The notes under the pieces: generated by a model
What the model saw: only the letters and a program-made list of their open reading frames with translations
Databases searched by the model: none
What the model was told of the DNA's origin: nothing
Assembly: GCA_022979955.1 (NCBI GenBank)
Contig: GCA_022979955.1_3642.1
Length of the DNA: 64,000 bases
Source: a phage
Strand: one strand, 5' to 3'
In this document: one piece after another, positions 4,333 to 64,000 of the stretch
Layout of the letters: every line of letters starts with the position of its first letter
How positions within the stretch are numbered: the stretch's first letter is position 1
Program-made: the position numbers and the translations under genes

Positions 4333-5826
4333 TTACTTAGCGTACTCGATTAATTCCACAGTTTTCCCAAAGCTAGGGATATAATTTTTATTATACCCTT
4401 CGGTGAGAACCCATAAAGTATCGTACTTTTTCCACTTGTTGTCAACAGCCTTTTGTTCAAAGTTATGCTCAAAGTATAGGTCGGTCAGGACGATGACATC
4501 TTTTGCATTCGGTATGTTGGCATCCAGATACTCGAACACGCAAGCAGCTGTTGTGCCCCATGTTGAGTGTACCTCATAGTTGATCATCTCGTCTATGTTG
4601 CCGCGAGTGTATACTTTAACCTCTCCGACTTCAGTTGACCAACAGAACATTGTAACCTTAAACTCTTTATACAGATTGCACAATCCGGTGATTTCATTGA
4701 ACATTTTCTTTAAAGTTCTTTGAGAGATCGAGCCAGAAACGTCTAAAGCTACCACAATATCTATGGTGTTTTCCGGATTACGACCAGGAACAATAACGTG
4801 CTGGTTCTTGTTTATAGCCCCAACTTTTCGCATTGTGCTGGTCAAAGACCCAGATCGGCGACCAGGTTTTCTGTAGGTCAGTTCAGCCTTTCGTTTAGAC
4901 AACATGCGTTGCTTGATGATGTCTATATAATTAATTACAGGCTTACCTCTATTCTTGACAAACTCACGAACCGCCTCAGGGCAACGGCCTCCGGAAGCTT
5001 GCATTGCTGCCTCCAGCATGTCACCAGAGTCCTGCATGGCCTGATCTTTATCAGATTGACTGATTACAGGTTGTGGCTGATCATACCCCATAGCCTTTCC
5101 AAGATCATCACTAGTGCCACCGTTACCACTCATGTGATCGTCGGTTTGTCGTTTATCTCCTTGAGAGTTCTCGCCTTTACCGTTCTTACTTTTACCGCTA
5201 TTCTGATCTCTTTGCTTATCAAGAACCGCATAGACGTTCTCAGCAATCCATCCATGGAACCTCATGTCACAGTAGCAACTAGCTAAGAAGCCAAAAGGCT
5301 TACCTTTTACAAACGTAGTGCTTTTCCCCTTCGGGAAGAAAACACAAGGGGGCTTGCTAAAGTCAACCACAAGACCTGTGTTGATAACATGATCACAGGC
5401 AATATTGAACAGCTCCGGCTCAAAACTTTTGCCACGGACCAGATGATCACAGATAATATGCCCCACCTCATGCGATAGAAGAAATGCCACCTCTTTCACA
5501 GATTTTGGGGAATAGAAAACCTCAGCCATCTCAAACTGCTTGTCAGTCAAAGATGCTTTAAGAATGGTTTTGCGCTCATCCGCCAATCCCATAATGAACT
5601 CAGGGCTGTAATAAATGCGTTTATGGTCTGTTGCCATGGTGGAGCACCATGTGTGGTTTTCTACGAACTGCAACCCTGACAACAGTGTGCCATAAAACGG
5701 CAGTTTTTCAAGAAGATACATACGTGCTGCCTGCAGCATTCGCAAGGCGTCATCTTTTTGTGCGGCAATGATTTCTGAACTTCTGCTATCCATTAAAACT
5801 CCAGAAGGGGACTTGGCCCCTGTCAT
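4333..5826 (-). CDS. vWA-domain protein with zincin-like HExxH motif
   Basis: HEVGH (HExxH) in N-terminal half; MIDAS-like DxSGS (ALDVSGS) in C-terminal half; a MoxR-type AAA+ ATPase is encoded at 9456. Confidence 0.7.
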   Translation of the reverse strand: MTGAKSPSGVLMDSRSSEIIAAQKDDALRMLQAARMYLLEKLPFYGTLLSGLQFVENHTWCSTMATDHKRIYYSPEFIMGLADERKTILKASLTDKQFEMAEVFYSPKSVKEVAFLLSHEVGHIICDHLVRGKSFEPELFNIACDHVINTGLVVDFSKPPCVFFPKGKSTTFVKGKPFGFLASCYCDMRFHGWIAENVYAVLDKQRDQNSGKSKNGKGENSQGDKRQTDDHMSGNGGTSDDLGKAMGYDQPQPVISQSDKDQAMQDSGDMLEAAMQASGGRCPEAVREFVKNRGKPVINYIDIIKQRMLSKRKAELTYRKPGRRSGSLTSTMRKVGAINKNQHVIVPGRNPENTIDIVVALDVSGSISQRTLKKMFNEITGLCNLYKEFKVTMFCWSTEVGEVKVYTRGNIDEMINYEVHSTWGTTAACVFEYLDANIPNAKDVIVLTDLYFEHNFEQKAVDNKWKKYDTLWVLTEGYNKNYIPSFGKTVELIEYAK

Positions 5827-6815
5827 TATTTAACGTGCTTGAAAATACCAGCCAACTCGGTCATTGTCATGCGGGTGGTCTTCATAAGGTCTGTCATAGC
5901 CTTCTCCATAATTGGAGATACTACCATAAAGTTACCTTTGGTGAAACCTTTATTCCAATCAGTCACTAATAGTGGTTTAAGTCCGGTCCCGAGACGCTCA
6001 CCAGTTAAAGCACAACATTTTCGAATATACGTGCTCTTAAACTGACTGAATGACAGATCAACTTTCATACCTGCATCGTAGAACGTCTGGCAATAGAAAG
6101 TGTAAGCTTTGGCAATCTCAACATCGTCAGGCAGTGCAGGAACCTCTTCTGTAAGCTCTTCTTCGGCCTCTTGAGGCTCTTTTTCCTCTTCGTGATCCTG
6201 TTGCATCATTTCTTCAATCTCTTCTGTTACAGGCTCATTTACGATGTCAGAAATGTGCTTGTTGGCTCCACGATTAGCCATGAAGTTTTTAAAATCCTGC
6301 ATTGGTGACATATCTTCCTCCCATTCTTCGTCAAAGAGTGCTAGTTTATCCTCTTCCGTTCCATATTGCAAGATGAAATCTTCAAAAGTGTAATCACCTT
6401 TCAATTTCTCCATACGCTCTTCGCTCAGGTGGAGCATCATCTGCTGGACAATTTTTCGATCAGTTTTGTCTTTAATCAAGACTGCGGTCTTTTTATCTAC
6501 CAGACAGTCCTTTAGAGAGTTGCATCTCAATCCCACCACACAACAATTATCAACAGCATAAGGACCTTCATCATCTATCCGCTCTAGGGAGGGGTAGAAA
6601 GGATTTCCCAGTCCGTTTTCATCTGTGTGCATATCGAAAGGTATAAGGGTATAGTCGCACACCCCCTCTCCTAAAAGTTTTTTACCAAATAGGAGGTATT
6701 CTTCCCATGACAGGTTGAACTCTATATCTCGTTTCCGTGCATTATTTTGTTTGCGTCTGTATTTTTTGAGCAAGCGCTCTAACTCTTCTGGTGTATAATA
6801 TTTTTCAAGATTCAT
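5826..6815 (-). CDS. hypothetical protein
   Basis: ORF is open to 7004, but ATG at 6815 lies about 25 nt downstream of a minus-strand promoter with AAGAGA SD-like sequence; the longer start would overlap the promoter and start of the divergent plus gene. Confidence 0.45.
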   Translation of the reverse strand: MNLEKYYTPEELERLLKKYRRKQNNARKRDIEFNLSWEEYLLFGKKLLGEGVCDYTLIPFDMHTDENGLGNPFYPSLERIDDEGPYAVDNCCVVGLRCNSLKDCLVDKKTAVLIKDKTDRKIVQQMMLHLSEERMEKLKGDYTFEDFILQYGTEEDKLALFDEEWEEDMSPMQDFKNFMANRGANKHISDIVNEPVTEEIEEMMQQDHEEEKEPQEAEEELTEEVPALPDDVEIAKAYTFYCQTFYDAGMKVDLSFSQFKSTYIRKCCALTGERLGTGLKPLLVTDWNKGFTKGNFMVVSPIMEKAMTDLMKTTRMTMTELAGIFKHVK

Positions 6816-6846
6816 GAGTTGTCTCTTGTGCTCTGTAGGTGAAGAA

Positions 6847-6875
6847 ATCTTATCAAGTGCCTCAACAGATGTCAA
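6847..6875 (-). promoter_or_regulatory. sigma70-like promoter (leftward)
   Basis: TTGACA-17-TAAGAT read on minus strand. Confidence 0.5.
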
Positions 6876-6888
6876 CCTCAAAAACGTG

Positions 6889-6917
6889 TTGACTTTACCC
6901 CAAATCCACGATATAGT
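6889..6917 (+). promoter_or_regulatory. sigma70-like promoter (rightward)
   Basis: TTGACT-17-TATAGT, back to back with the leftward promoter. Confidence 0.6.
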
Positions 6918-6957
6918 GCACCCATTCGAAAGAAAACGAACACAGGAGTACTTAATC

Positions 6958-7857
6958 ATGGCAAATCTTAACAGCTTTAGCACTCGATGGAAACAAGATA
7001 TCACAACTAATCTCTCAGCAGGCGATATCCTTTCTGCAATTTACGAGGCTTTGGATGATAAAGCTACTTCAAAATCGGTTTGTACCAACCCGTTAATTCC
7101 TATGGTAATGAAGGTGATTGAGCGTAGGTTGGTATCCGGATCTGATAAGTGGACATATCTGGATAATGGAGGCCACACTTACTCCAACGGATATGTCGAT
7201 ATAAAAGTAGAATATGCGGTATCATATCGCCGGAGCGGCTCTGTAACTTTCAACTTCTCTGGTGGTTTCCGATCTCTGGCAACTTCACCTTTTGTTTCCT
7301 CAGAGGAGAGGTTTGAACTTCCGTTCCTTTGGATGATGGCTAACGCGACAGGCAAAACCCCTGTAAGCATTCGCGTAAAATACAACTACAACGGATCTAG
7401 TAAGATCTATGCCGAGAGTGTCTCAGCAAGTTTTTATTTTGTGATGGGGGATGGAATCCTCAAACATATAAAGATGTGCGATATGCATGATGTTATAAAT
7501 GAAGTGACTGATAAGAATGTTCTAGTGAAAGACCTCAACAATTTTTATACACCCGGAGACTATTACGTCAGCCGTCCACTGTGCATCTTTAATGCCGCAC
7601 ACCCTCTAGGTGAGTATTTGATCGCCAATAGCGATATTGCCAATAACCGCTTCGAGGTAGCAAGAGTTCAGAATGAGGTATTGACATCTTGCAAGAGCGG
7701 TGATAAGTTTACCGAAGAAGAGATGGGTGTTTTAGAAATGATGGGATATAAGTGTAGCCTTTGGGTAGATGAGGTGTTTAATGATTGCATCTATGGACAG
7801 GATATTTACCCATTAAAGAAGTATACTGATTCCAGTTTAATTTACGCGGAGATTTGA
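6958..7857 (+). CDS. hypothetical protein
   Basis: ATG at 6958 preceded by AGGAG (6944-6948); the longest-ORF start at 6814 would lie inside the divergent promoter region. Confidence 0.5.
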   Translation: MANLNSFSTRWKQDITTNLSAGDILSAIYEALDDKATSKSVCTNPLIPMVMKVIERRLVSGSDKWTYLDNGGHTYSNGYVDIKVEYAVSYRRSGSVTFNFSGGFRSLATSPFVSSEERFELPFLWMMANATGKTPVSIRVKYNYNGSSKIYAESVSASFYFVMGDGILKHIKMCDMHDVINEVTDKNVLVKDLNNFYTPGDYYVSRPLCIFNAAHPLGEYLIANSDIANNRFEVARVQNEVLTSCKSGDKFTEEEMGVLEMMGYKCSLWVDEVFNDCIYGQDIYPLKKYTDSSLIYAEI

Positions 7858-8502: not shown

Positions 8503-8759
8503 TGAAAGTACAGATCTTGACTAATGCCGAGAAGATGTTTATTGAAGATACACCTTTTGAAGCTGGTGAGCTACAGTTTGTTTATTTTGTTGACTTAGAT
8601 AAGGTGTTTCCTGCACTGAATCTGGGTCTGGATGAAGTTCCTCATAAGGTTTTGTGCCAAGTTGTTCGTGCCTTAGCGGCAGAGGGGGAGTTCCACACCC
8701 TTCAAGATGTCCAGACCTACGGGTATCTTGAACTACAACGAGAAGAAGAGGTGGACTGA
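8502..8759 (+). CDS. hypothetical protein
   Basis: 85-aa ORF, stop/start overlap with upstream gene. Confidence 0.4.
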   Translation: MKVQILTNAEKMFIEDTPFEAGELQFVYFVDLDKVFPALNLGLDEVPHKVLCQVVRALAAEGEFHTLQDVQTYGYLELQREEEVD

Positions 8760-8761
8760 TA

Positions 8762-9142
8762 ATGGCACGGTGGAAGACAACAGTTGACCTTCATGATCAG
8801 TGGTTAGGACGCATCACTGAAGACGGGAAACTAGTGGAGTGGGACAATAAGCATGTTAGCGAGTTGGCAAGCATTGTGGCTGGCAAGTTACGCTCCAAGT
8901 TCCCTGAACAACTGGATCCTGATAATTCAAAGTTCGATCCTGAGTTGGAGGATGTTGTATACTACTTCGATACCGTGGATGACTACGATGCGTGGTTTGC
9001 AGCACGGGAGCTTTACCCACAAGGCTCTGCTATGCGCCAGATGGAAGAAGATTATCCTCCGTGTGAGCAATTCAATAGTGCAATGACTTGCCTCTATGAT
9101 TGGGCAGATAAGAACCTTGTCTGGATTCGGACTGCATTTTAG
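8762..9142 (+). CDS. hypothetical protein
   Basis: 126-aa ORF in co-directional block. Confidence 0.45.
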   Translation: MARWKTTVDLHDQWLGRITEDGKLVEWDNKHVSELASIVAGKLRSKFPEQLDPDNSKFDPELEDVVYYFDTVDDYDAWFAARELYPQGSAMRQMEEDYPPCEQFNSAMTCLYDWADKNLVWIRTAF

Positions 9143-9186
9143 TGGGCAGGAATGGCGGCAAGGATGCTGCTTAAGGAGTAGTAGAG

Positions 9187-9456
9187 ATGTTATACCAGCA
9201 ATATGAACTTCGTGCAGAAAAAGAGTTAAATTTTGACAAAGATATTCACAGATATTATTATGGGAAAGTTAGAGGGCAAGCAAGAAAGTGTACTCCAACA
9301 CTCTTTTATGCCAGCAGACGACTAGCGCCAGAAGAGGCAACAGTAGAAAGGGTTGCGTACAACTGGAGAGTCACGTATGATATTGATAGATTCGATGTGA
9401 TATCTGTTTTGGAAAACTTTGAAAACACTTACACACAAGTAGAGGACTTTTACTAA
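9187..9456 (+). CDS. hypothetical protein
   Basis: 89-aa ORF, overlaps start of AAA+ ATPase gene. Confidence 0.4.
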   Translation: MLYQQYELRAEKELNFDKDIHRYYYGKVRGQARKCTPTLFYASRRLAPEEATVERVAYNWRVTYDIDRFDVISVLENFENTYTQVEDFY

Positions 9457-10640
9457 TGTCAAGAAACGTATTTGAAAGTGGTCAAATCACTGTCCGTGAG
9501 TTGCCAGCTATCATTCAGTTTGCCCAGCGTCATAACCGATCTGTCCTGATTTTAGGACCAATGGGTGTGGGAAAGAGTCAGGTGATGAAGCAGATCGCTG
9601 ATAATATGTTCGGTGAGCGAGATGACAACCTGGTTGACGTGCGGCTGTCAGATAAAGATCCTGCCGACTTATCTGGGCTACCTATCCCTGTAGAAGCGGA
9701 TGGGACTACACGTACAGTGTTTGCAATCCCAGAATTTTGGCCTGCGGATCCTGACTGGAGCGGAATTGTCTTTCTGGATGAGCTCACTCATGCAGATAAC
9801 TACCTGCAAAAGGTTGCAATGCAGATTATGCTCGACCACAAGTGCGGCACCTATGCATTCCCTAAGGGCTCTGTTTTTGTAGCTGCAGGTAACCGTTCTA
9901 CAGATGGTGCTGTTCTTTCGGCGCTCGAAGCCCCTCTGGCTAACCGCTTTATCATTGTAGAAGTTACAAGCAACGCAGAGGTGTTTATTGAGGACTACGC
10001 ATTCCTTAATGGGGTGCACTCCTCTGTAATTGGATATCTGAAAAGAGTTCCATCAGCTATTGATAATTATGAGGCCATGGCTGAGATTAATTGTCCATCT
10101 TTTGCCACACCGCGATCTTGGGTTGCTGCATCTGATATCTTGCACGATTTTGACAGCGGTATTATTTCTGACGCTATGGCCCGTGTTCTTCTGCAAGGTG
10201 CTATTGGTCACACTGCAGCGGTAGAGATCTGGACTTACCACACCAAGAAACGCAACTTACCGGAAATCGGTCGGATTATGGCAGGAGGTTGCAAAGAATA
10301 CGTAGGCCCTAAACAGCCAGACATCTTGTGGATTCTTGGATCTGAAGGTTGTATCGCTATTCGTAATATGATGGAAAATGCAAGTATCTCCGACGAAGAT
10401 CTTGTTAGCTGTGTGGCAAACTTCCTCGATTTCCTTTGGGAAAACTTCAAGGACGAGAACCGAGATTTTGTATTCTCAGTCTTTATGGCGATGATGAAAC
10501 CTAATGCCTTAGGAAATGCCTTGCTTATCGGTAAAGGTCGTGACAAGATTGTTGCTCAGCTGATCAAAGCATACCCAAACCTGATGAAGATTGTAAAAGA
10601 GTTTGGTGAAGAGTTTAGCGCCATTTTGGCTAAAGCTTAA
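9456..10640 (+). CDS. AAA+ ATPase, MoxR/CbbQ-like
   Basis: Walker A GPMGVGKS and Walker B IVFLDELTHAD; size and motif spacing fit MoxR-type ATPases that partner with vWA proteins. Confidence 0.75.
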   Translation: MSRNVFESGQITVRELPAIIQFAQRHNRSVLILGPMGVGKSQVMKQIADNMFGERDDNLVDVRLSDKDPADLSGLPIPVEADGTTRTVFAIPEFWPADPDWSGIVFLDELTHADNYLQKVAMQIMLDHKCGTYAFPKGSVFVAAGNRSTDGAVLSALEAPLANRFIIVEVTSNAEVFIEDYAFLNGVHSSVIGYLKRVPSAIDNYEAMAEINCPSFATPRSWVAASDILHDFDSGIISDAMARVLLQGAIGHTAAVEIWTYHTKKRNLPEIGRIMAGGCKEYVGPKQPDILWILGSEGCIAIRNMMENASISDEDLVSCVANFLDFLWENFKDENRDFVFSVFMAMMKPNALGNALLIGKGRDKIVAQLIKAYPNLMKIVKEFGEEFSAILAKA

Positions 10641-43887: not shown

Positions 43888-44160
43888 ATGTCAAGCTGGA
43901 TTAATCAAGAAGTCGAATCACGTTTTAATGCTATTTGGGATCTCATCGAAAAAGAGGACGGAACATCAAGCCCCTATCTCAACAATTTGGAATTCCATTT
44001 TGTGGAAGCGATGAACGCAGAACATGATCACGAAGGTGGCGCGGATGAGTTCGCTAAAGGTTATGGCTTTAACAATGCCAACGAAATGATCGAGGCGGTC
44101 GTACTCCAAGCTGAGGAAGATTATCAATTAAAAACGCTTGAATTCTGCCGCCATAAGTAA
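43888..44160 (+). CDS. hypothetical protein
   Basis: 90-aa acidic ORF with GGAGAGAGGA SD. Confidence 0.45.
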   Translation: MSSWINQEVESRFNAIWDLIEKEDGTSSPYLNNLEFHFVEAMNAEHDHEGGADEFAKGYGFNNANEMIEAVVLQAEEDYQLKTLEFCRHK

Positions 44161-44220
44161 TAAGATAATGACACGGGCCAAAAGGCCCACTAATCAGAAC
44201 CGCACAAAGAGGTAAACATC

Positions 44221-44484
44221 ATGAAACGTCTTGATCAGCTCAAATTAGTTCAATATATGGCTTATCGTGTTCTTGAAGTCCAGAAAGGTAGCAAAAAAGA
44301 GGTTTGCGAGAAAGCTTATAAGATCTTCACTCGCAAAAAAGATGACTGGATGCTACGCCAGACTAAAAAGGCTGACATCTTGGGGTACCTGGAAGAAGAG
44401 ATCCGCCTTGAAGAGCAAGAAGAGATCCGCCGTAGTGAGGCAGATTATCAGGCAGCTTGGGAAAACTGGATGAGCAACAAATAA
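44221..44484 (+). CDS. hypothetical protein
   Basis: 87-aa charged ORF with AAGAGG SD; leader hairpin GGGCC-AAAA-GGCCC. Confidence 0.45.
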   Translation: MKRLDQLKLVQYMAYRVLEVQKGSKKEVCEKAYKIFTRKKDDWMLRQTKKADILGYLEEEIRLEEQEEIRRSEADYQAAWENWMSNK

Positions 44485-44540
44485 TACAACAAGTTACATG
44501 GTCAGGGGCAATAAAGCCCCTTGATCACATAAAAATTATG

Positions 44541-44569
44541 CTATCCCTGGTTGACAGGGATCGGCAGTT
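44541..44569 (+). promoter_or_regulatory. sigma70-like promoter with palindrome around -35
   Basis: TTGACA-17-TATATT; TCCCTG/CAGGGA inverted repeat flanks the -35. Confidence 0.5.
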
Positions 44570-44627
44570 TTGCTATATTCTTTTTGAAGGGAAGTTGTAA
44601 GAAAATTAACTAAGAGGTAAAAACACC

Positions 44628-45047
44628 ATGAACATTAAATCTAATAATCCGGCATATAGCTTTGATAACGCTTTTTGTCACGGTCCGGCGGCGAAAGGAT
44701 TCGAAATCGATGGTAAACTAATTATTGTCAATGTTGACGGGGAAGAGGTTGCAGTATATCCGGTGGCAGACGTAAAAAGCCGTTTACAATGCCGCATGGA
44801 TGTTACCGCCTATCAGCTTGATCCGGTCCGCATAGTTGCCCTGGTCCTGGAAGAAGAAATTAAAGCCATGCACCATAGCAACAGATTTATTGGTGACGCG
44901 CAGGATAATATGAAAGTATGCCGCCATAAAGTTAATGAAGTGCTTAAAGAGTACGGCTATAGAGATCTTATGATCAAACGTGAGGAAAAATTCCGCTACC
45001 GTAACGACCTGGCAAATCGGATTTTTGAAATATACGAATCATTATAA
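44628..45047 (+). CDS. hypothetical protein
   Basis: 139-aa ORF with AAGAGG SD; last gene of plus-strand array. Confidence 0.45.
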   Translation: MNIKSNNPAYSFDNAFCHGPAAKGFEIDGKLIIVNVDGEEVAVYPVADVKSRLQCRMDVTAYQLDPVRIVALVLEEEIKAMHHSNRFIGDAQDNMKVCRHKVNEVLKEYGYRDLMIKREEKFRYRNDLANRIFEIYESL

Positions 45048-45065
45048 TTTTTTAACTGAATTATC

Positions 45066-45092
45066 AAGGGGCTTAGGCCCCTTTCTTTTTGT
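45066..45092 (+). terminator. rho-independent terminator
   Basis: AAGGGGC-TTAG-GCCCCTT hairpin followed by TCTTTTTGT. Confidence 0.65.
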
Positions 45093-45689
45093 CTGCTCTT
45101 CTCCTACCATAAACGGCCCTACCTGGCAAGTGGAATAATTGACTAGCCATCAATCCCACATACTGTACAAATATACATGGAAAATAACTATTGCATAATT
45201 TTTCATTGTGTGGTAGCAAGTCCATTTTTACCCGTTTTCTCTCCCAAAAGTGCACGTAATGCCGCTATTGCACAAATTTTAACCTGATGCACATCTCTAA
45301 TATCTTGTCAACAACTAAAAATCTTTATAAGTCATACACTTACACAGCATCGAAAGCGTGTTCTACGCGAAAAATCGAGTATAACTATAGCCGCCAGATC
45401 TCAGAATTCACGTACGCACGCCATTCTATAGCCTGCAAAGTATTTATTCCAACCACAGAATAACGGAATAGTCAATACCTGCATAAAATAATTATTCGTG
45501 TAAACTGCATAACATAAATCAGCTCAGGTGTCAACATTTTTCGTAAACAGTTCGAAATTGTCACGGTAAGTTATTATACACAGAGAAATCTTTAGTCGTC
45601 TAATGGTTACTATACATTACTAATCTGACTGGAATCATTAGATGACTAATAGAAAGATAAGAAATAATTAACAGTCTAATTATATTAAC

Positions 45690-45970
45690 GATAACAATAA
45701 CAGCGGTTAAAGTCATGGCGCGACGGAGTCGCGACATAATAACACCGAGTAACCCTCACCCCCGTGAGCGTTGCGAATGTTATTATGCCATGACTAAATC
45801 ATTTCAACACGTAACTATAGGCATAACAACATTCCCTCGGTGTTATTATGTCGCTAGTTATTATATAACTGTTAACAATAACGCCTCGGGAATAGTTCTG
45901 CCTGCACGATGTTTATAACAGCAAGTTATGATCAACATTTCACAGATTATAATAACAGCGGTTAAAGTCA
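45690..45970. repeat. direct-repeat pair flanking a 19-bp inverted repeat
   Basis: AATAACAGCGGTTAAAGTCA exact at 45696-45715 and 45951-45970; inside, GCGACATAATAACACCGAG (45731-45749) and its reverse complement (45836-45854). Confidence 0.6.
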
Positions 45971-46597
45971 GGCGTAGAAACAGTGGAAGTGTAAACAGTC
46001 AATCATGTAAATGATAAGTATGTGAACAGTTATCCATGTAAACTATTAGACATGTAAACAATCAGGTGTGCAAAAGTGTCAAGGGTGTCACCATTGTGTC
46101 TAAAGTGTCGTATGTCATCAGTATGTCAGACAAGTTTTTCTCCTCTTTGTCAAGTGCTGCATGAAAAATTTACAATCTTGTATGGTAGCATTTTTGCGGT
46201 CCTGTTTACATTCAGAGATGTATGTATAATCCTTGTTGTGTGGGCGTTTAGACGTCTAGACGGTCAGAAGTCTGCAGGTCAATATCTAATCTATTGGCTG
46301 CTAACTATATCCCACACAAATAGTAAGAAATATAATTGTTATATGCGTAAACAGTAACCCATGTTATCAATCCCTGTATGGATCGCCAGTGGTGCGCATA
46401 ATGGGTATTATGTTAAATTGCCCGTAATGATAATGGTTCTCACAATGATATGTATTCTCATTCCCCCACACAAAATAGATTGCAAATGTTGTGCCACTAT
46501 GTGAACGGCCTCACCTATTAATTTGCCTCACTGCCTCGATATTTGAGAATTATTATAAGAATGAGAAGTATTCCCATTTCGTCCGCCTGGCAGCGCT

Positions 46598-46657
46598 CCT
46601 GTAGGTCCTGCAAGGACTCTAGCTGAAAGCTAGACCCTTCGGGCCTCCCTGTAGGTC
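46598..46657. other. three consecutive tetraloop hairpins bracketed by CCTGTAGGTC direct repeats
   Basis: GTCCT-GCA-AGGAC, CTAGC-TGAAA-GCTAG, CCC-TTCG-GGG; CCTGTAGGTC at 46598 and 46648. Confidence 0.4.
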
Positions 46658-46705
46658 AGGTCAAAATCGTGGTAGAATTGGGCCTATTCAGATATTTCTG
46701 GCTGG

Positions 46706-46900
46706 CTCTTCAGGTCTGTGTGGGAAAAGCCAACCTCTCCGGCGGGGCAGGGGGAGGTAAATTAAAAAATTTACGGGGTATATGAAGCGCTCTTCAGGTA
46801 AGGCATGTACTATGGGATGAAACCCTCTTCAGGCAATGATATTTGTGGGTGTGATATTTGCTGGAAAGCCAGATATGACGGGACTCCCGGCGGGGCAGGG
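46706..46900. repeat. degenerate tandem unit CTCTTCAGG...CCGGCGGGGCAGGG
   Basis: CTCTTCAGG at 46706, 46790, 46825 (also 47238, 47886); CCGGCGGGGCAGGG at 46739 and 46887. Confidence 0.55.
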
Positions 46901-47596
46901 GTAGTACAGACAGGGAAAATATGAGAATGTAGTTGGGGAAATTGATCAGACAGGTAGAGTATGGAATATGTTACAAGTATGTTAAATATGGAGGTTGAAT
47001 ATCTGTAGGATTTGTGTGTAAAATCAAAGACTTAAGGGGTGTTGTGGTATTTTCTATAAATAATTCAAGTTTAATAGGCAATATTTGTCTCTATCCGCTT
47101 TGTGTGGTAAACAGATTCAGATTAGATTGGTTTACAAGTGTATACATAATATACAAATTAAAGATACAAGAAACCCCCCTCCCCCTTCGGCTACCATTCA
47201 CCTTTTCCTCTGACTGGTACTTAAACACTTATTCAGACTCTTCAGGTTATCACCCATATATCATATGGCAGTGACTGGTGTCCTCCGGCCCCTCTTTCGT
47301 CACCCGTCCGCTTCGCCATGCTAATGCCATAGCTAATGGTTCGGTTGTTCACCCTGTTCACTCAGGTGTATCTCTATACCCCTTCAAACCGAAGAGAACA
47401 GAAAACCCGAATTACTCGGTAAAAGAAAAGAGAAGAACTTAATTTTATCAGGATAGGCAAGAATGTCAAGGCATGACTGCTCACTAAACAAGCAAACAGT
47501 CATGTGTGGGAGGTAAGTGATTGTGGTGGTAGGAAATTTAGTTGAAAGATGTGTTATAGGTGCTTCCAGCACTTTAGCCTGGCAGCTAATTGTGTG

Positions 47597-47812
47597 TCAG
47601 TCCAGCGGTTCATCCTCTACTTCACTGAAATCAATGTTCATGGTCTCTTCCCAACCATCGATCTCAGCACAAGAGTGGAGTTCTTTAGGGTTTACTCCCA
47701 AAGCCTCAGCAACAGAGTCTATATTTAACACCTCTGGCAGGTATGTTTCATCGAATTCAAGGTAAATCAGGCCACGAGTGTTGTCAGCTCCACCAAATAT
47801 TTCTATCTTCAT
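47597..47812 (-). CDS. hypothetical acidic protein
   Basis: 71-aa ORF; last gene of minus-strand block. Confidence 0.4.
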   Translation of the reverse strand: MKIEIFGGADNTRGLIYLEFDETYLPEVLNIDSVAEALGVNPKELHSCAEIDGWEETMNIDFSEVEDEPLD

Positions 47813-47933
47813 GAAATCTCCTCTGGAAATGAGAGTGTGAACAGGGTTTTATACGTTCCAATGCACTGGAATTATACACGTTTGCCTCTTCAGGCCATGC
47901 TTTAGCATGAGGAGCCTGTGTGGGCTCGGTGCT

Positions 47934-48347
47934 TCATAGTCTACCACCTCTGAACTCTTCGTGCTCAGGCATAATAGAGAACCAGATATCTACGATGTCT
48001 TCCCACGTTAGGTCATCAGCCTCAGGATCTGTCTGGGACGAAGATGGAGAATCTTCAGAATCGAAGTTTTCCTCTTGCACTGGCTCAGTCAAGGGACATA
48101 TAGTCACTCCTTTGGATGTCTCTTCAGATGCATGTGTGTTTATCATGTTCCACCCGTGAGTATTCCGGCAACAGCCACTATGGACGTAATGATCATCAGG
48201 ATCACCACCAAAACCTCTGACAATGTTTTCATTGTGTATCCCATATTCTCCAAACGATGTGTGGATACTATCACTGGAGCGGCAATGTGTCAACAGAAAC
48301 GCCGCGAGGGTTTGGTTAAAATCCGAGCGTATGGTGATTTGGGTCAA
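47934..48347 (-). CDS. hypothetical protein
   Basis: 137-aa ORF. Confidence 0.45.
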   Translation of the reverse strand: MTQITIRSDFNQTLAAFLLTHCRSSDSIHTSFGEYGIHNENIVRGFGGDPDDHYVHSGCCRNTHGWNMINTHASEETSKGVTICPLTEPVQEENFDSEDSPSSSQTDPEADDLTWEDIVDIWFSIMPEHEEFRGGRL

Positions 48348-48506
48348 AACGGACGTGCGTTCTCGCTACGCTCGAAAGAGAGACTTGTTTGTAGAAAGCT
48401 CTTAAACGCTCTGTAACGAGATTATCTGTCCAAGGTATGCAATCGTGCACCAGATAAAGAAAAGGACGCCACAGAGCGTCCTAGGTGTCTTAAATTTGAT
48501 ATTTTG

Positions 48507-48818
48507 CTATACCCATGAGGGCTTATCAAGGTTGGAGTAGCTGAAAGGTGTCAAAAGGTGACTGTCAAAATCCCTCAAACTATCCAAATCTTTTTCCTCG
48601 TCCTGACACCATCTGTGCCTACATTTATTGTTGTAGTGCATAGAATGCATAGCGTTCTGCAACTTAACAGGTACAAGTGATTCAGGAGTAGATAGTATTG
48701 TTGGGTATGCCAGAATCACCTCAAACAGTGGAAACACATCGAAACTAAAGTCTACCTCTGCAGAGGTTGATGGCATATAGGAGTATTTAGCCGCCTTTGT
48801 AGACATAATCCACCTCAC
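48507..48818 (-). CDS. hypothetical protein
   Basis: 103-aa ORF. Confidence 0.4.
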   Translation of the reverse strand: MRWIMSTKAAKYSYMPSTSAEVDFSFDVFPLFEVILAYPTILSTPESLVPVKLQNAMHSMHYNNKCRHRWCQDEEKDLDSLRDFDSHLLTPFSYSNLDKPSWV

Positions 48819-49141
48819 ACAGGTTTGATAATACCTTTACCGAATAATTCTTCGTATCTAATCTTATCCGGATCCCACTCTTGGATAATTTCGAAGACAA
48901 TATCCAACCCAGGGATAATCACTTCTCCAGTGTCAAGTTTGGCAAGAACAAAACCAGAAGGCTGAATGGTTTCCCAGTTGCGCCGATTGGAATAGAAGAC
49001 CTCGAAAATATCGCCGACCTTTATCTGTTGATCAAGATGTTCAAGATTCTCTTTCATATAGACGCAGCGGATTTTTCGTGCAGGCCATAGACCACCTGCA
49101 TCACGTTCATTTAGCTCTTTTACAGTAATCGGTATACCCAT
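48815..49141 (-). CDS. hypothetical protein
   Basis: 108-aa ORF overlapping downstream gene start. Confidence 0.45.
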   Translation of the reverse strand: MGIPITVKELNERDAGGLWPARKIRCVYMKENLEHLDQQIKVGDIFEVFYSNRRNWETIQPSGFVLAKLDTGEVIIPGLDIVFEIIQEWDPDKIRYEELFGKGIIKPV

Positions 49142-63299: not shown

Positions 63300-64000
63300 T
63301 CAGCAACCACAACTTCCGTAGTGCTTAACTCGCTCGATAACTTCCGCTTGCTTACCTTTATTGTAAGGACGGGAGTTAGGACTGGAAAGATATCCAGACA
63401 CTCTTCGGATCACTGAGATATATTGTTCATCGTGGCATCCACACGCAGGGCAGCAGAACCCTTTAGCTGTTGCACTGAACTCACCAGAGAAACCGCACTT
63501 AAGACATTTATCCACAGGCTGGTTAATACCAAAATACATAATGTGTTTATATCCGAAATCAACAAGAGCTTCCAAAGCATCTAAGTTGTTTTTCAGATTT
63601 GGTGTCTCTATGTACCCAATGTTGCCACCAGAGGAGATCATAGCAAAACCTTCCTCATACTTCCACTTATCAAAAGGCGAGCTATTTATCCATACTGGCT
63701 GATGGAAACTGTTGGTGAGATATTCATGCTCATGCTTCAACACTTCAGGATATTCACGATCCAGACAGGTTGCAGCTTTATAGCATAGACTCTCAGAAGG
63801 GGTGCCGTACAAGCTAAACGCTAGTCTACTTTCCTTCTTGTATCGCTCACAAGCATCTCTCATGTGCTGAAGGATTCCAAGAGCTAAAGCCTTGTCACCC
63901 TCTCTGCCCAAAATCTGACAGGTTTCATACACACCAATATACCCAATACTGATGGAAGCGTACCCGTCATAGAAGAGTTTATCAATACTCTCTTCAGGAT
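63300..64000 (-). CDS. nrdD: anaerobic ribonucleoside-triphosphate reductase, C-terminal part (5' end beyond window)
   Basis: Zinc-ribbon CLKCG...CPACG and glycyl-radical-type motif RRVSGYL near C-terminus; reading frame open to the window edge. Confidence 0.8.
   Translation of the reverse strand, partial: PEESIDKLFYDGYASISIGYIGVYETCQILGREGDKALALGILQHMRDACERYKKESRLAFSLYGTPSESLCYKAATCLDREYPEVLKHEHEYLTNSFHQPVWINSSPFDKWKYEEGFAMISSGGNIGYIETPNLKNNLDALEALVDFGYKHIMYFGINQPVDKCLKCGFSGEFSATAKGFCCPACGCHDEQYISVIRRVSGYLSSPNSRPYNKGKQAEVIERVKHYGSCGC

Follow-up and report, generated by a model that had tools for sequence, protein, structure and literature searches.

The window analysed here is a 64,000-nucleotide stretch of phage DNA (64 kb; GenBank assembly GCA_022979955.1, contig GCA_022979955.1_3642.1), and its subject is the gap at 45048-47596, a non-coding, repeat-rich region between two gene blocks that are both transcribed towards it. 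The last gene on the plus strand occupies 44628-45047 and the last gene on the minus strand 47597-47812; both have matches to PHROG families. The plus-strand block ending at 45047 encodes rIIA/rIIB, a Dda-like helicase, a methyltransferase, a T7-like primase-helicase and a family-A DNA polymerase, while the minus-strand block ending at 47597 consists of small genes without an assigned function. An earlier reading of the letters alone (the sequence-only reading) had described this convergent arrangement, with a terminator near 45066 and a minus-strand block ending at 47597, and both limits were confirmed. A blastn search with the 2.5-kb stretch yields 122 phage records of 90-97% identity, and 97 of these cover at least 80% of it. 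The matching records nearly all belong to Vequintavirus, i.e. to the rV5-like myoviruses of E. coli, and judged by this similarity the source of the window is a Vequintavirus phage. We conclude, with a probability of about 0.85, that the gap represents the terminus of this rV5-like phage genome, which in concatemers is the junction region.

This conclusion is based on a segment of 459 bp in the middle of the gap. The genome of phage Gotham carries two annotated repeat_regions, 1-459 and 136567-137025, and each of them can be aligned, with exact ends, to 46129-46587 in reverse complement. The central 459 bp align base for base with this direct terminal repeat (DTR) of Gotham, and the identity to Vequintavirus DTRs is around 93-95%. 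In records that were opened at physical ends, the match breaks at query positions 1037 and 1495. At least eight records, deposited independently of each other, start or stop at the two boundaries, namely Gotham, HdK5, EdH4, ECP2303, ECP2309, Pr121LW, bov10K2 and bov22_2. Since these record ends fall on two fixed query positions, the DTR is placed at 46129-46587. Terminal repeats of 459 bp and 458 bp were obtained from read coverage for Gotham, EdH4 and HdK5 (PMC7471380, PMC6563267). The alignments thus show 46129-46587 to be the homologue of the 459-bp DTR found at both ends of the virion DNA of close relatives, with coincident boundaries. The repeat occurs once in the 64-kb window, because the assembly was collapsed or circularised, and the single copy lies at the junction. 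The sequence-only reading had left a replication origin, a packaging site, a genome end and a non-coding RNA locus unranked side by side; the genome end with its packaging function is now strongly supported, while the cue for a DnaA-dependent origin and the link to a known RNA family or tRNA were not upheld.

The boundary at 46128/46129 falls between TGTCA and GACA, and the surrounding junction TGTCAGACAAGTTTT is invariant in 16 of 16 genomes. Related junctions were found in more distant phages, as GTATGCCTAA followed by CAAA in L006, a member of an uncultivated sister clade, and as GTATTGCTAA followed by ACACAA in KPP-1. The other boundary, 46587/46588, lies between CGTCCGCC and TGGCAGC. From the plus-strand genes up to and just beyond the DTR, the following features were observed:

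45066-45083, plus strand: intrinsic terminator, AAGGGGCTTAGGCCCCTT followed by a T-run, with a 7-bp G+C stem and a 4-nt loop; it closes the replication-gene block.
45093-45689, unstranded: conserved non-coding 'left arm' with 83-97% column identity per 50-nt bin, mostly ~90% or above, in 16 genomes.
45690-45970, unstranded: palindromic module between two 26-nt direct repeats, 45690-45715 and 45945-45970.
45989-46066, plus strand: array of ~16-bp units with GT(A/G)AACAGT; five units in the window, 3-12 in relatives.
46075-46128, plus strand: array of (A/G)TGTC(A) units at a spacing of 7-11 bp, ending at the DTR boundary within TGTCAGACA.
46129-46587, unstranded: DTR of 459 bp, one collapsed copy, assigned by homology to the mapped Gotham repeat.
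46147-46176, plus strand: sigma-70-like promoter in the DTR (TTGTCA-18-TACAAT), ~18 nt inside the repeat; KPP-1 keeps TTGTCA-18-TACAAA.
46588-46665, unstranded: hypervariable zone outside the other DTR boundary, with 57% gaps across 16 genomes.

A terminator is annotated likewise at the site of 45066-45083 in phages Alma and Gotham.

Conservation and codon periodicity were measured on the alignment of 16 genomes. Substitutions in the flanking genes are 3-periodic (p=2e-13, 2e-6 and 9e-10), whereas codon periodicity is absent from every segment and every open reading frame (ORF) of the gap (p>0.27). The seven longest ORFs of the gap (54-93 aa) show no periodicity, yield no PHROG match and have no Pfam match above the curated cut-off. 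In the L006 clade, nothing corresponds to a 62-aa ORF that overlaps the most conserved part of the gap. The missing periodicity together with the missing family matches rules out a protein-coding gene, and the statement of the sequence-only reading that the gap holds no credible ORF is correct. The gap was already boxed as 'non-coding' in the rV5 genome paper (PMC3606486). Careful annotators leave it empty; automated pipelines place 7-14 mutually inconsistent tiny ORFs there.

Despite being non-coding, the region is conserved. The DTR is 86-97% identical across the 16 genomes, and the DTR together with both arms is 85-100% identical overall. An island of the left arm at 45285-45394 can be aligned even in the distant L006 clade. 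Two zones beside the DTR are hypervariable, one at 45750-46128, which reaches the cut at 46128/46129, and one at 46600-46649, which starts ~12 nt past 46587. The alignment shows that ~1 kb on either side of the DTR is non-coding yet constrained.

The side of the DTR at 45.7-46.1 kb is ordered alike in every genome, apart from FV3 with its missing module (see below): the palindromic module is followed by the GT(A/G)AACAGT array, and this by the (A/G)TGTCA array, which runs up to the junction TGTCAGACAAGTTTT. Short repeats had been noticed near 46000-46110 from the letters alone, and both arrays are real: TGTAAAC-type units extend over 45990-46060, and those of (A/G)TGTC over 46076-46127. The motif of the GT(A/G)AACAGT array also occurs inside the DTR (46347-46354) and as an inverted pair at 47345-47361. 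Matches to GTRAACAR are concentrated in the region, with 10 of the 18 in the 64-kb window falling in 45543-47844.

The palindromic module contains the direct-repeat pair flanking an inverted repeat that the sequence-only reading had pointed out; the 26-nt repeats enclose a perfect inverted repeat with 19-nt arms, GCGACATAATAACACCGAG at 45731-45749 and CTCGGTGTTATTATGTCGC at 45836-45854, ~275 bp from the DTR boundary. The longest inverted repeat of dinucleotide-shuffled sequence (500 shuffles) had a mean of 9.6 nt and a maximum of 15 nt. Smaller hairpins lie at 45720-45732 and 45756-45767. Homologous inverted repeats with arms of 17-21 nt occupy the same place in the window, in the majority Vequintavirus type (rV5), in L006, KPP-1, PVP-SE1, Av-05 and in an Erwinia phage. 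Half of the 18 aligned arm positions (nine) vary between these lineages, and each change is matched in the partner arm, with G:T pairs entirely absent. Folded as single-stranded DNA, three variants lie far beyond their shuffles (z of -6.8 for the window, -6.6 for L006 and -9.6 for the majority Vequintavirus type). Such strictly Watson-Crick arms suggest that it is DNA, as a hairpin or cruciform, and not RNA that is under selection.

The variant of the module carried by the window, at 45768-45990, was matched by none of 50,697 phage records. In its arm sequence it is nearer to the distant clades of L006 and KPP-1 than to the remaining 118 Vequintavirus records, which suggests that the module of the window is ancestral or was brought in as a cassette by recombination.

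On the far side of the DTR, between its second boundary and the minus-strand genes, three further kinds of features were found:

46706, 46790, 46825 and 47238, with a fifth at 47886, plus strand: CTCTTCAGG boxes, invariant in 16 genomes.
46739-46757 and 46887-46904, plus strand, and 47174-47185 (C6TC5), G-rich on the minus strand: paired G-tracts, three of only four in the 64 kb.
47150-47560, minus strand: ultra-conserved non-coding block with 7% variable columns, compared to 14-24% in neighbouring genes.

The window contains six exact copies of CTCTTCAGG, five of which lie within 46706-47894, all five on the plus strand; CCGGCGGGGCAGGG occurs twice. The sequence-only reading had described such units as tandem, whereas they are dispersed. 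The copy at 47886-47894 is outside the gap, preceding the start of the last minus-strand gene by 74 nt, and L006 has a copy at the corresponding place; the sixth (63990-63998) is situated at the extreme end of the window. The plus-strand G-tract occupies the same relative position in L006, rV5, KPP-1 and PVP-SE1, and lies downstream of the inverted repeat in the Erwinia phage and Av-05.

Within the ultra-conserved block, a near-consensus promoter with an extended -10 element was identified on the minus strand at 47469-47442 (TTGACA-16-TGaTAAAAT). It is followed by a CU-rich leader and then by a hairpin with a U-run (47419-47400), ~16-18 nt past the likely start (~22 nt after the -10 hexamer). 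The L006 clade keeps this promoter as TTGCAA-17-TGcTATAAT, as well as a hairpin with a different stem and a TCTTCTCT tract. The block also holds two copies of GTGAACA, at 47345-47361. The part at 47150-47436 folds no better than shuffles on either strand (z of -1.2 and -0.1). Directly outside the DTR, the run of tetraloop hairpins mentioned in the sequence-only reading does exist as a hairpin-rich insertion (46600-46650) between two CTCC(C)TGTAGGTC repeats, but only 4 of 16 genomes carry this form, and the segment 46586-46670 again folds like its shuffles (z of -1.4 and -0.3).

Terminal gaps of this kind also occur in further genera of the subfamily Vequintavirinae. KPP-1 (Mydovirus) has a read-mapped DTR of 514 bp, classified as T7-type by PhageTerm (PMC9862379), and PBES-02 (Vequintavirinae) has a DTR of 443 bp. 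In KPP-1, the repeat lies within a 1.8-kb gap between convergent blocks, and its boundary is 1-2 nt from the homologous junction sequence. PVP-SE1, Av-05 and the Erwinia phage have gaps of 1.6-2.2 kb at the corresponding place. KPP-1 and PVP-SE1 were oriented by the alignment of DTR boundary and promoter, and all seven lineages by the order of inverted repeat and G-tract; for KPP-1, the conserved boundary and promoter had to be used because the flanking proteins share no homology. The common layout comprises, in this order, an inverted repeat, a cut-site motif, a promoter, the DTR and a paired G-tract on the non-template strand of the promoter. Elements retained in this order were observed in seven lineages, namely the window type, the rV5 majority type, the uncultivated sister clade and four other genera. 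All seven have an inverted repeat and a plus-strand G-tract; the homologous cut-site junction is present in four (plus rV5) and the promoter in four.

Searches with blastn from the window stay within the genus, and the other genera were reached only via the KPP-1 gap. The only real relatives in IMG/VR are contigs of two close Vequintavirus relatives (L007/L026 and L034), three contigs of the one sister clade (L006/L051, L033 and L044) and the more distant contig L008, whose gap does not align with that of the window; two pattern scans of IMG/VR and a protein-anchored scan for wider homologues otherwise gave chance matches. The terminal gap of L006 (IMGVR_UViG_3300045988_159287) holds at 8716-9486 a 256-aa ORF with an HNH_3 endonuclease domain, which is absent from the window and from cultured relatives.

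Several points weigh against reading the gap as a genome terminus. The termini of this particular phage are inferred by homology. A motif that could denote one nuclease site is not clearly shared by the two DTR boundary sequences. The repeat arrays differ in copy number between phages, and in FV3 (L010, JQ031132, ~1500-1720) a single copy of the direct repeat is found and the inverted-repeat module is absent; hence none of the flanking elements is proven to be indispensable. In FV3, either the module is dispensable, or its absence is a deletion artefact from the sequencing or cloning of a palindrome. The genome of rV5 was described as circularly permuted in 2013 (PMC3606486), and one Vequintavirus paper from 2026 gives a 'headful' call by PhageTerm. 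These published descriptions disagree with the sharp repeats of 458-459 bp in Gotham, EdH4 and HdK5.

If the gap is the terminus, its parts can be ordered in a working model along the lines of T7. In T7-type packaging, each concatemer junction contains one repeat, which is duplicated by extension from staggered nicks (PMC5557969), and a DNA hairpin intermediate has been reported in T7 (PMC4281155). By analogy, replication would yield concatemers with one repeat per junction. A terminase would recognise fixed sites and nick at 46128/46129 (between TGTCA and GACA) and at 46587/46588, and the repeat would be duplicated by 3' extension, thereby ending up at both ends of each packaged genome. A terminase gene was not identified among the genes of the window, whose large ORFs belong to replication, rII and HNH functions; the terminase of this phage lies outside the window. 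In our own interpretation, the (A/G)TGTCA and GT(A/G)AACAGT arrays are the most likely recognition sites and candidate targets of the terminase or of an accessory protein. Their variation in copy number fits slippage among tandem putative binding sites. The perfect inverted repeat may form a hairpin or cruciform, possibly for junction processing or replication, and could then be a fold-back or cruciform intermediate comparable to that of T7. The promoters, G-tracts and CTCTTCAGG boxes of the far side would be further putative cis signals.

Other functions were considered for the gap, either in place of the terminus or next to it. A replication origin, possibly beside the terminus, appears unlikely, but it has some features in its favour. 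Transcription by host RNA polymerase from the promoter at 46147-46176 (plus strand) or at 47469-47442 (minus strand) into paired G-tracts of the non-template strand could provide an R-loop or hybrid G-quadruplex primer for the T7-like polymerase and the primase-helicase of the phage; alternatively, iteron-like arrays could act together with the hairpin. In line with the first version, three of the four paired G-tracts of the 64 kb lie downstream of promoters on the matching strand, with positions conserved across lineages, and the promoters themselves are conserved across clades. Among the gene products of the window are a family-A polymerase and a T7-like primase-helicase, whereas a phage RNA polymerase is absent. 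In line with the second version, arrays adjoining a structured inverted repeat resemble iteron origins. In ColE1 RNA II and at the mitochondrial light-strand promoter with conserved sequence block II (CSBII), G-tracts of the non-template strand likewise lie some hundreds of nucleotides downstream of a promoter, and a T7-like replisome is a further point of comparison. In this tentative analogy, the G5AG6 tract of the window resembles CSBII in form only.

Other signals speak against an origin. Cumulative GC skew peaks at the gap, as expected with convergent transcription, and gives no origin signal, and the skew of rV5 was read likewise (PMC3606486). The DnaA-box-like TTATCCATG of the sequence-only reading turned out to be one TTATCCA inside a variable repeat unit, which is unconserved at that position in relatives and best regarded as a chance match, as the window contains 13 copies of TTATCCA. 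An oriC-type origin with a conserved cluster of DnaA boxes and an AT-rich element was rejected.

A non-coding RNA locus is an equally improbable explanation of the gap as a whole. The RNA would be ~45 nt long, composed of the CU-rich leader and terminator hairpin behind the minus-strand promoter, or it would be a long plus-strand RNA out of the DTR. The conserved promoter, the covarying stem of the hairpin and the TCTTCTCT tract kept in the L006 clade argue for the short form, as does a block that exceeds the neighbouring genes in conservation while lacking a coding signal, and a small RNA from the minus-strand promoter is plausible on these grounds. On the other hand, Rfam yielded no match for 44000-49000 at E<=1, and ARAGORN found neither a tRNA nor a tmRNA (transfer-messenger RNA) over the whole window. 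These are the model scans that the sequence-only reading had proposed; they came back empty, in agreement with its remark that no tRNA-like T-arm was seen. In addition, the fold of 47150-47436 does not rise above shuffles, the hairpin run beside the DTR varies by strain, and the large inverted repeat, with Watson-Crick pairs and no G:U, points to selection on DNA rather than RNA. Transcriptome literature for Vequintavirus was not found. Mimicry of host sequence was tested for 46588-47596, which has no match in 5,426 E. coli genomes. Taken together with the terminus, an origin or a small RNA may be located in the flanks in addition.

A bolder and somewhat more doubtful proposal combines these elements, such that the terminal gap of Vequintavirinae would be a conserved two-part cis-acting machine, consisting of a hairpin copied by fold-back and of promoters firing into G-tract primers, i.e. 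an origin at the end of the chromosome. The arms of the hairpin would be kept exact because fold-back synthesis copies them while the terminal repeat is being duplicated. Host polymerase running into the paired G-tracts would form R-loop or G-quadruplex primers, resulting in an origin similar to that of ColE1 or mitochondria that is used by a T7-like replisome.

It is very unlikely that the direct-repeat-flanked palindrome at 45690-45970 is a small mobile element near the genome end, be it similar to a miniature inverted-repeat transposable element (MITE) or a homing remnant. The long direct repeats around a palindromic core, the FV3 'empty site' with one repeat copy, a variant in the window that is found in no other phage record and the HNH endonuclease gene in the same gap of L006 are compatible with such an element. 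However, the module keeps the same position in seven lineages and has diverged along with them, which makes an origin as a mobile element unlikely. The flanking repeats are lineage-specific rather than one duplicated target, no further copy exists in the window or in phage records, and no transposase is associated. Transposons and MITEs are characterised by terminal inverted repeats, by a short target duplication and by multiple copies or a transposase; here, a single copy is flanked by 26-nt repeats that co-vary with the lineage, and this assignment was rejected. Finally, decayed coding sequence or a functionless spacer is hardly credible, since conservation equal to or exceeding that of neighbouring genes is too high for 'junk', the cis elements follow the same order in seven lineages, and codon periodicity and family matches are absent, even though automated annotations place 7-14 tiny ORFs in the gap and parts of it are indel-prone.

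Some observations concern the surroundings and the records used. At 4333-7004 on the minus strand of the window, two adjacent large ORFs match PHROGs of HNH endonucleases, the second of which also weakly matches the family 'decoy of host sigma70'; the pair is located at a divergent switch between transcription blocks. A 137-aa ORF at 47934-48347 (minus strand) lacks codon periodicity (p=0.30) and is probably not a real gene, because relatives annotate shorter, different genes there. A series of 19 'Campylobacter phage' records (MG0656xx) is 93-97% identical to E. coli Vequintaviruses over the gap region. The one record of this series that was opened, MG065646 (L016), is flagged UNVERIFIED, and the host label 'Campylobacter' of these records looks doubtful from their sequences.

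The true ends fix the orientation of the genome for this phage and for many relatives, as most records are opened arbitrarily. Spurious ORFs have been annotated in the gap in several records, and in the founding paper the genome was taken to be permuted. In rV5-like phages engineered for therapy, the cis signals of the 2.5 kb must stay intact. To our knowledge, the recognition, cutting and duplication of T7-type termini have been studied in T7 and T3 only, and the shared layout offers an entry point to how large myoviruses with such ends perform these steps.

In the form in which it was posed, the finding describes a known feature, since both the DTR and the gene-free gap have been published for close relatives. 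The architecture of cis elements, i.e. the hairpin shared across genera, the placement of the G-tracts, the CTCTTCAGG boxes, the ultra-conserved promoter block and the arrays at the DTR boundaries, was not found in the literature searched and appears to be undescribed. Compared to the Vequintavirus DTRs of Gotham, EdH4 and HdK5, 46129-46587 agrees in its sequence, in its boundaries and in lying between convergent blocks. It differs from them in the collapsed single copy, in a palindromic-module variant that is present in no deposited phage and in termini that are assigned by homology.

The short exact terminal repeat with fixed ends is shared with the junction of T7 and T3. Short-repeat arrays, termed 'SRL/SRR', reportedly flank the terminal repeat of T7 as well (Dunn and Studier in 1983), so that arrays beside a terminal repeat would be common to both systems. 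Unlike T7, the phage studied here is a 137-kb myovirus without a phage RNA polymerase; its repeat is three times longer, it is accompanied by 1-kb flanks, and there is no sequence similarity. For T5, the non-coding region of the terminal repeat is said to have been proposed as an injection stop signal (Davison in 2015). Both phages have a large gene-free stretch rich in repeats and palindromes near a repeat-bearing end, but in T5 this stretch is part of a 10-kb repeat and is associated with a two-step DNA transfer.

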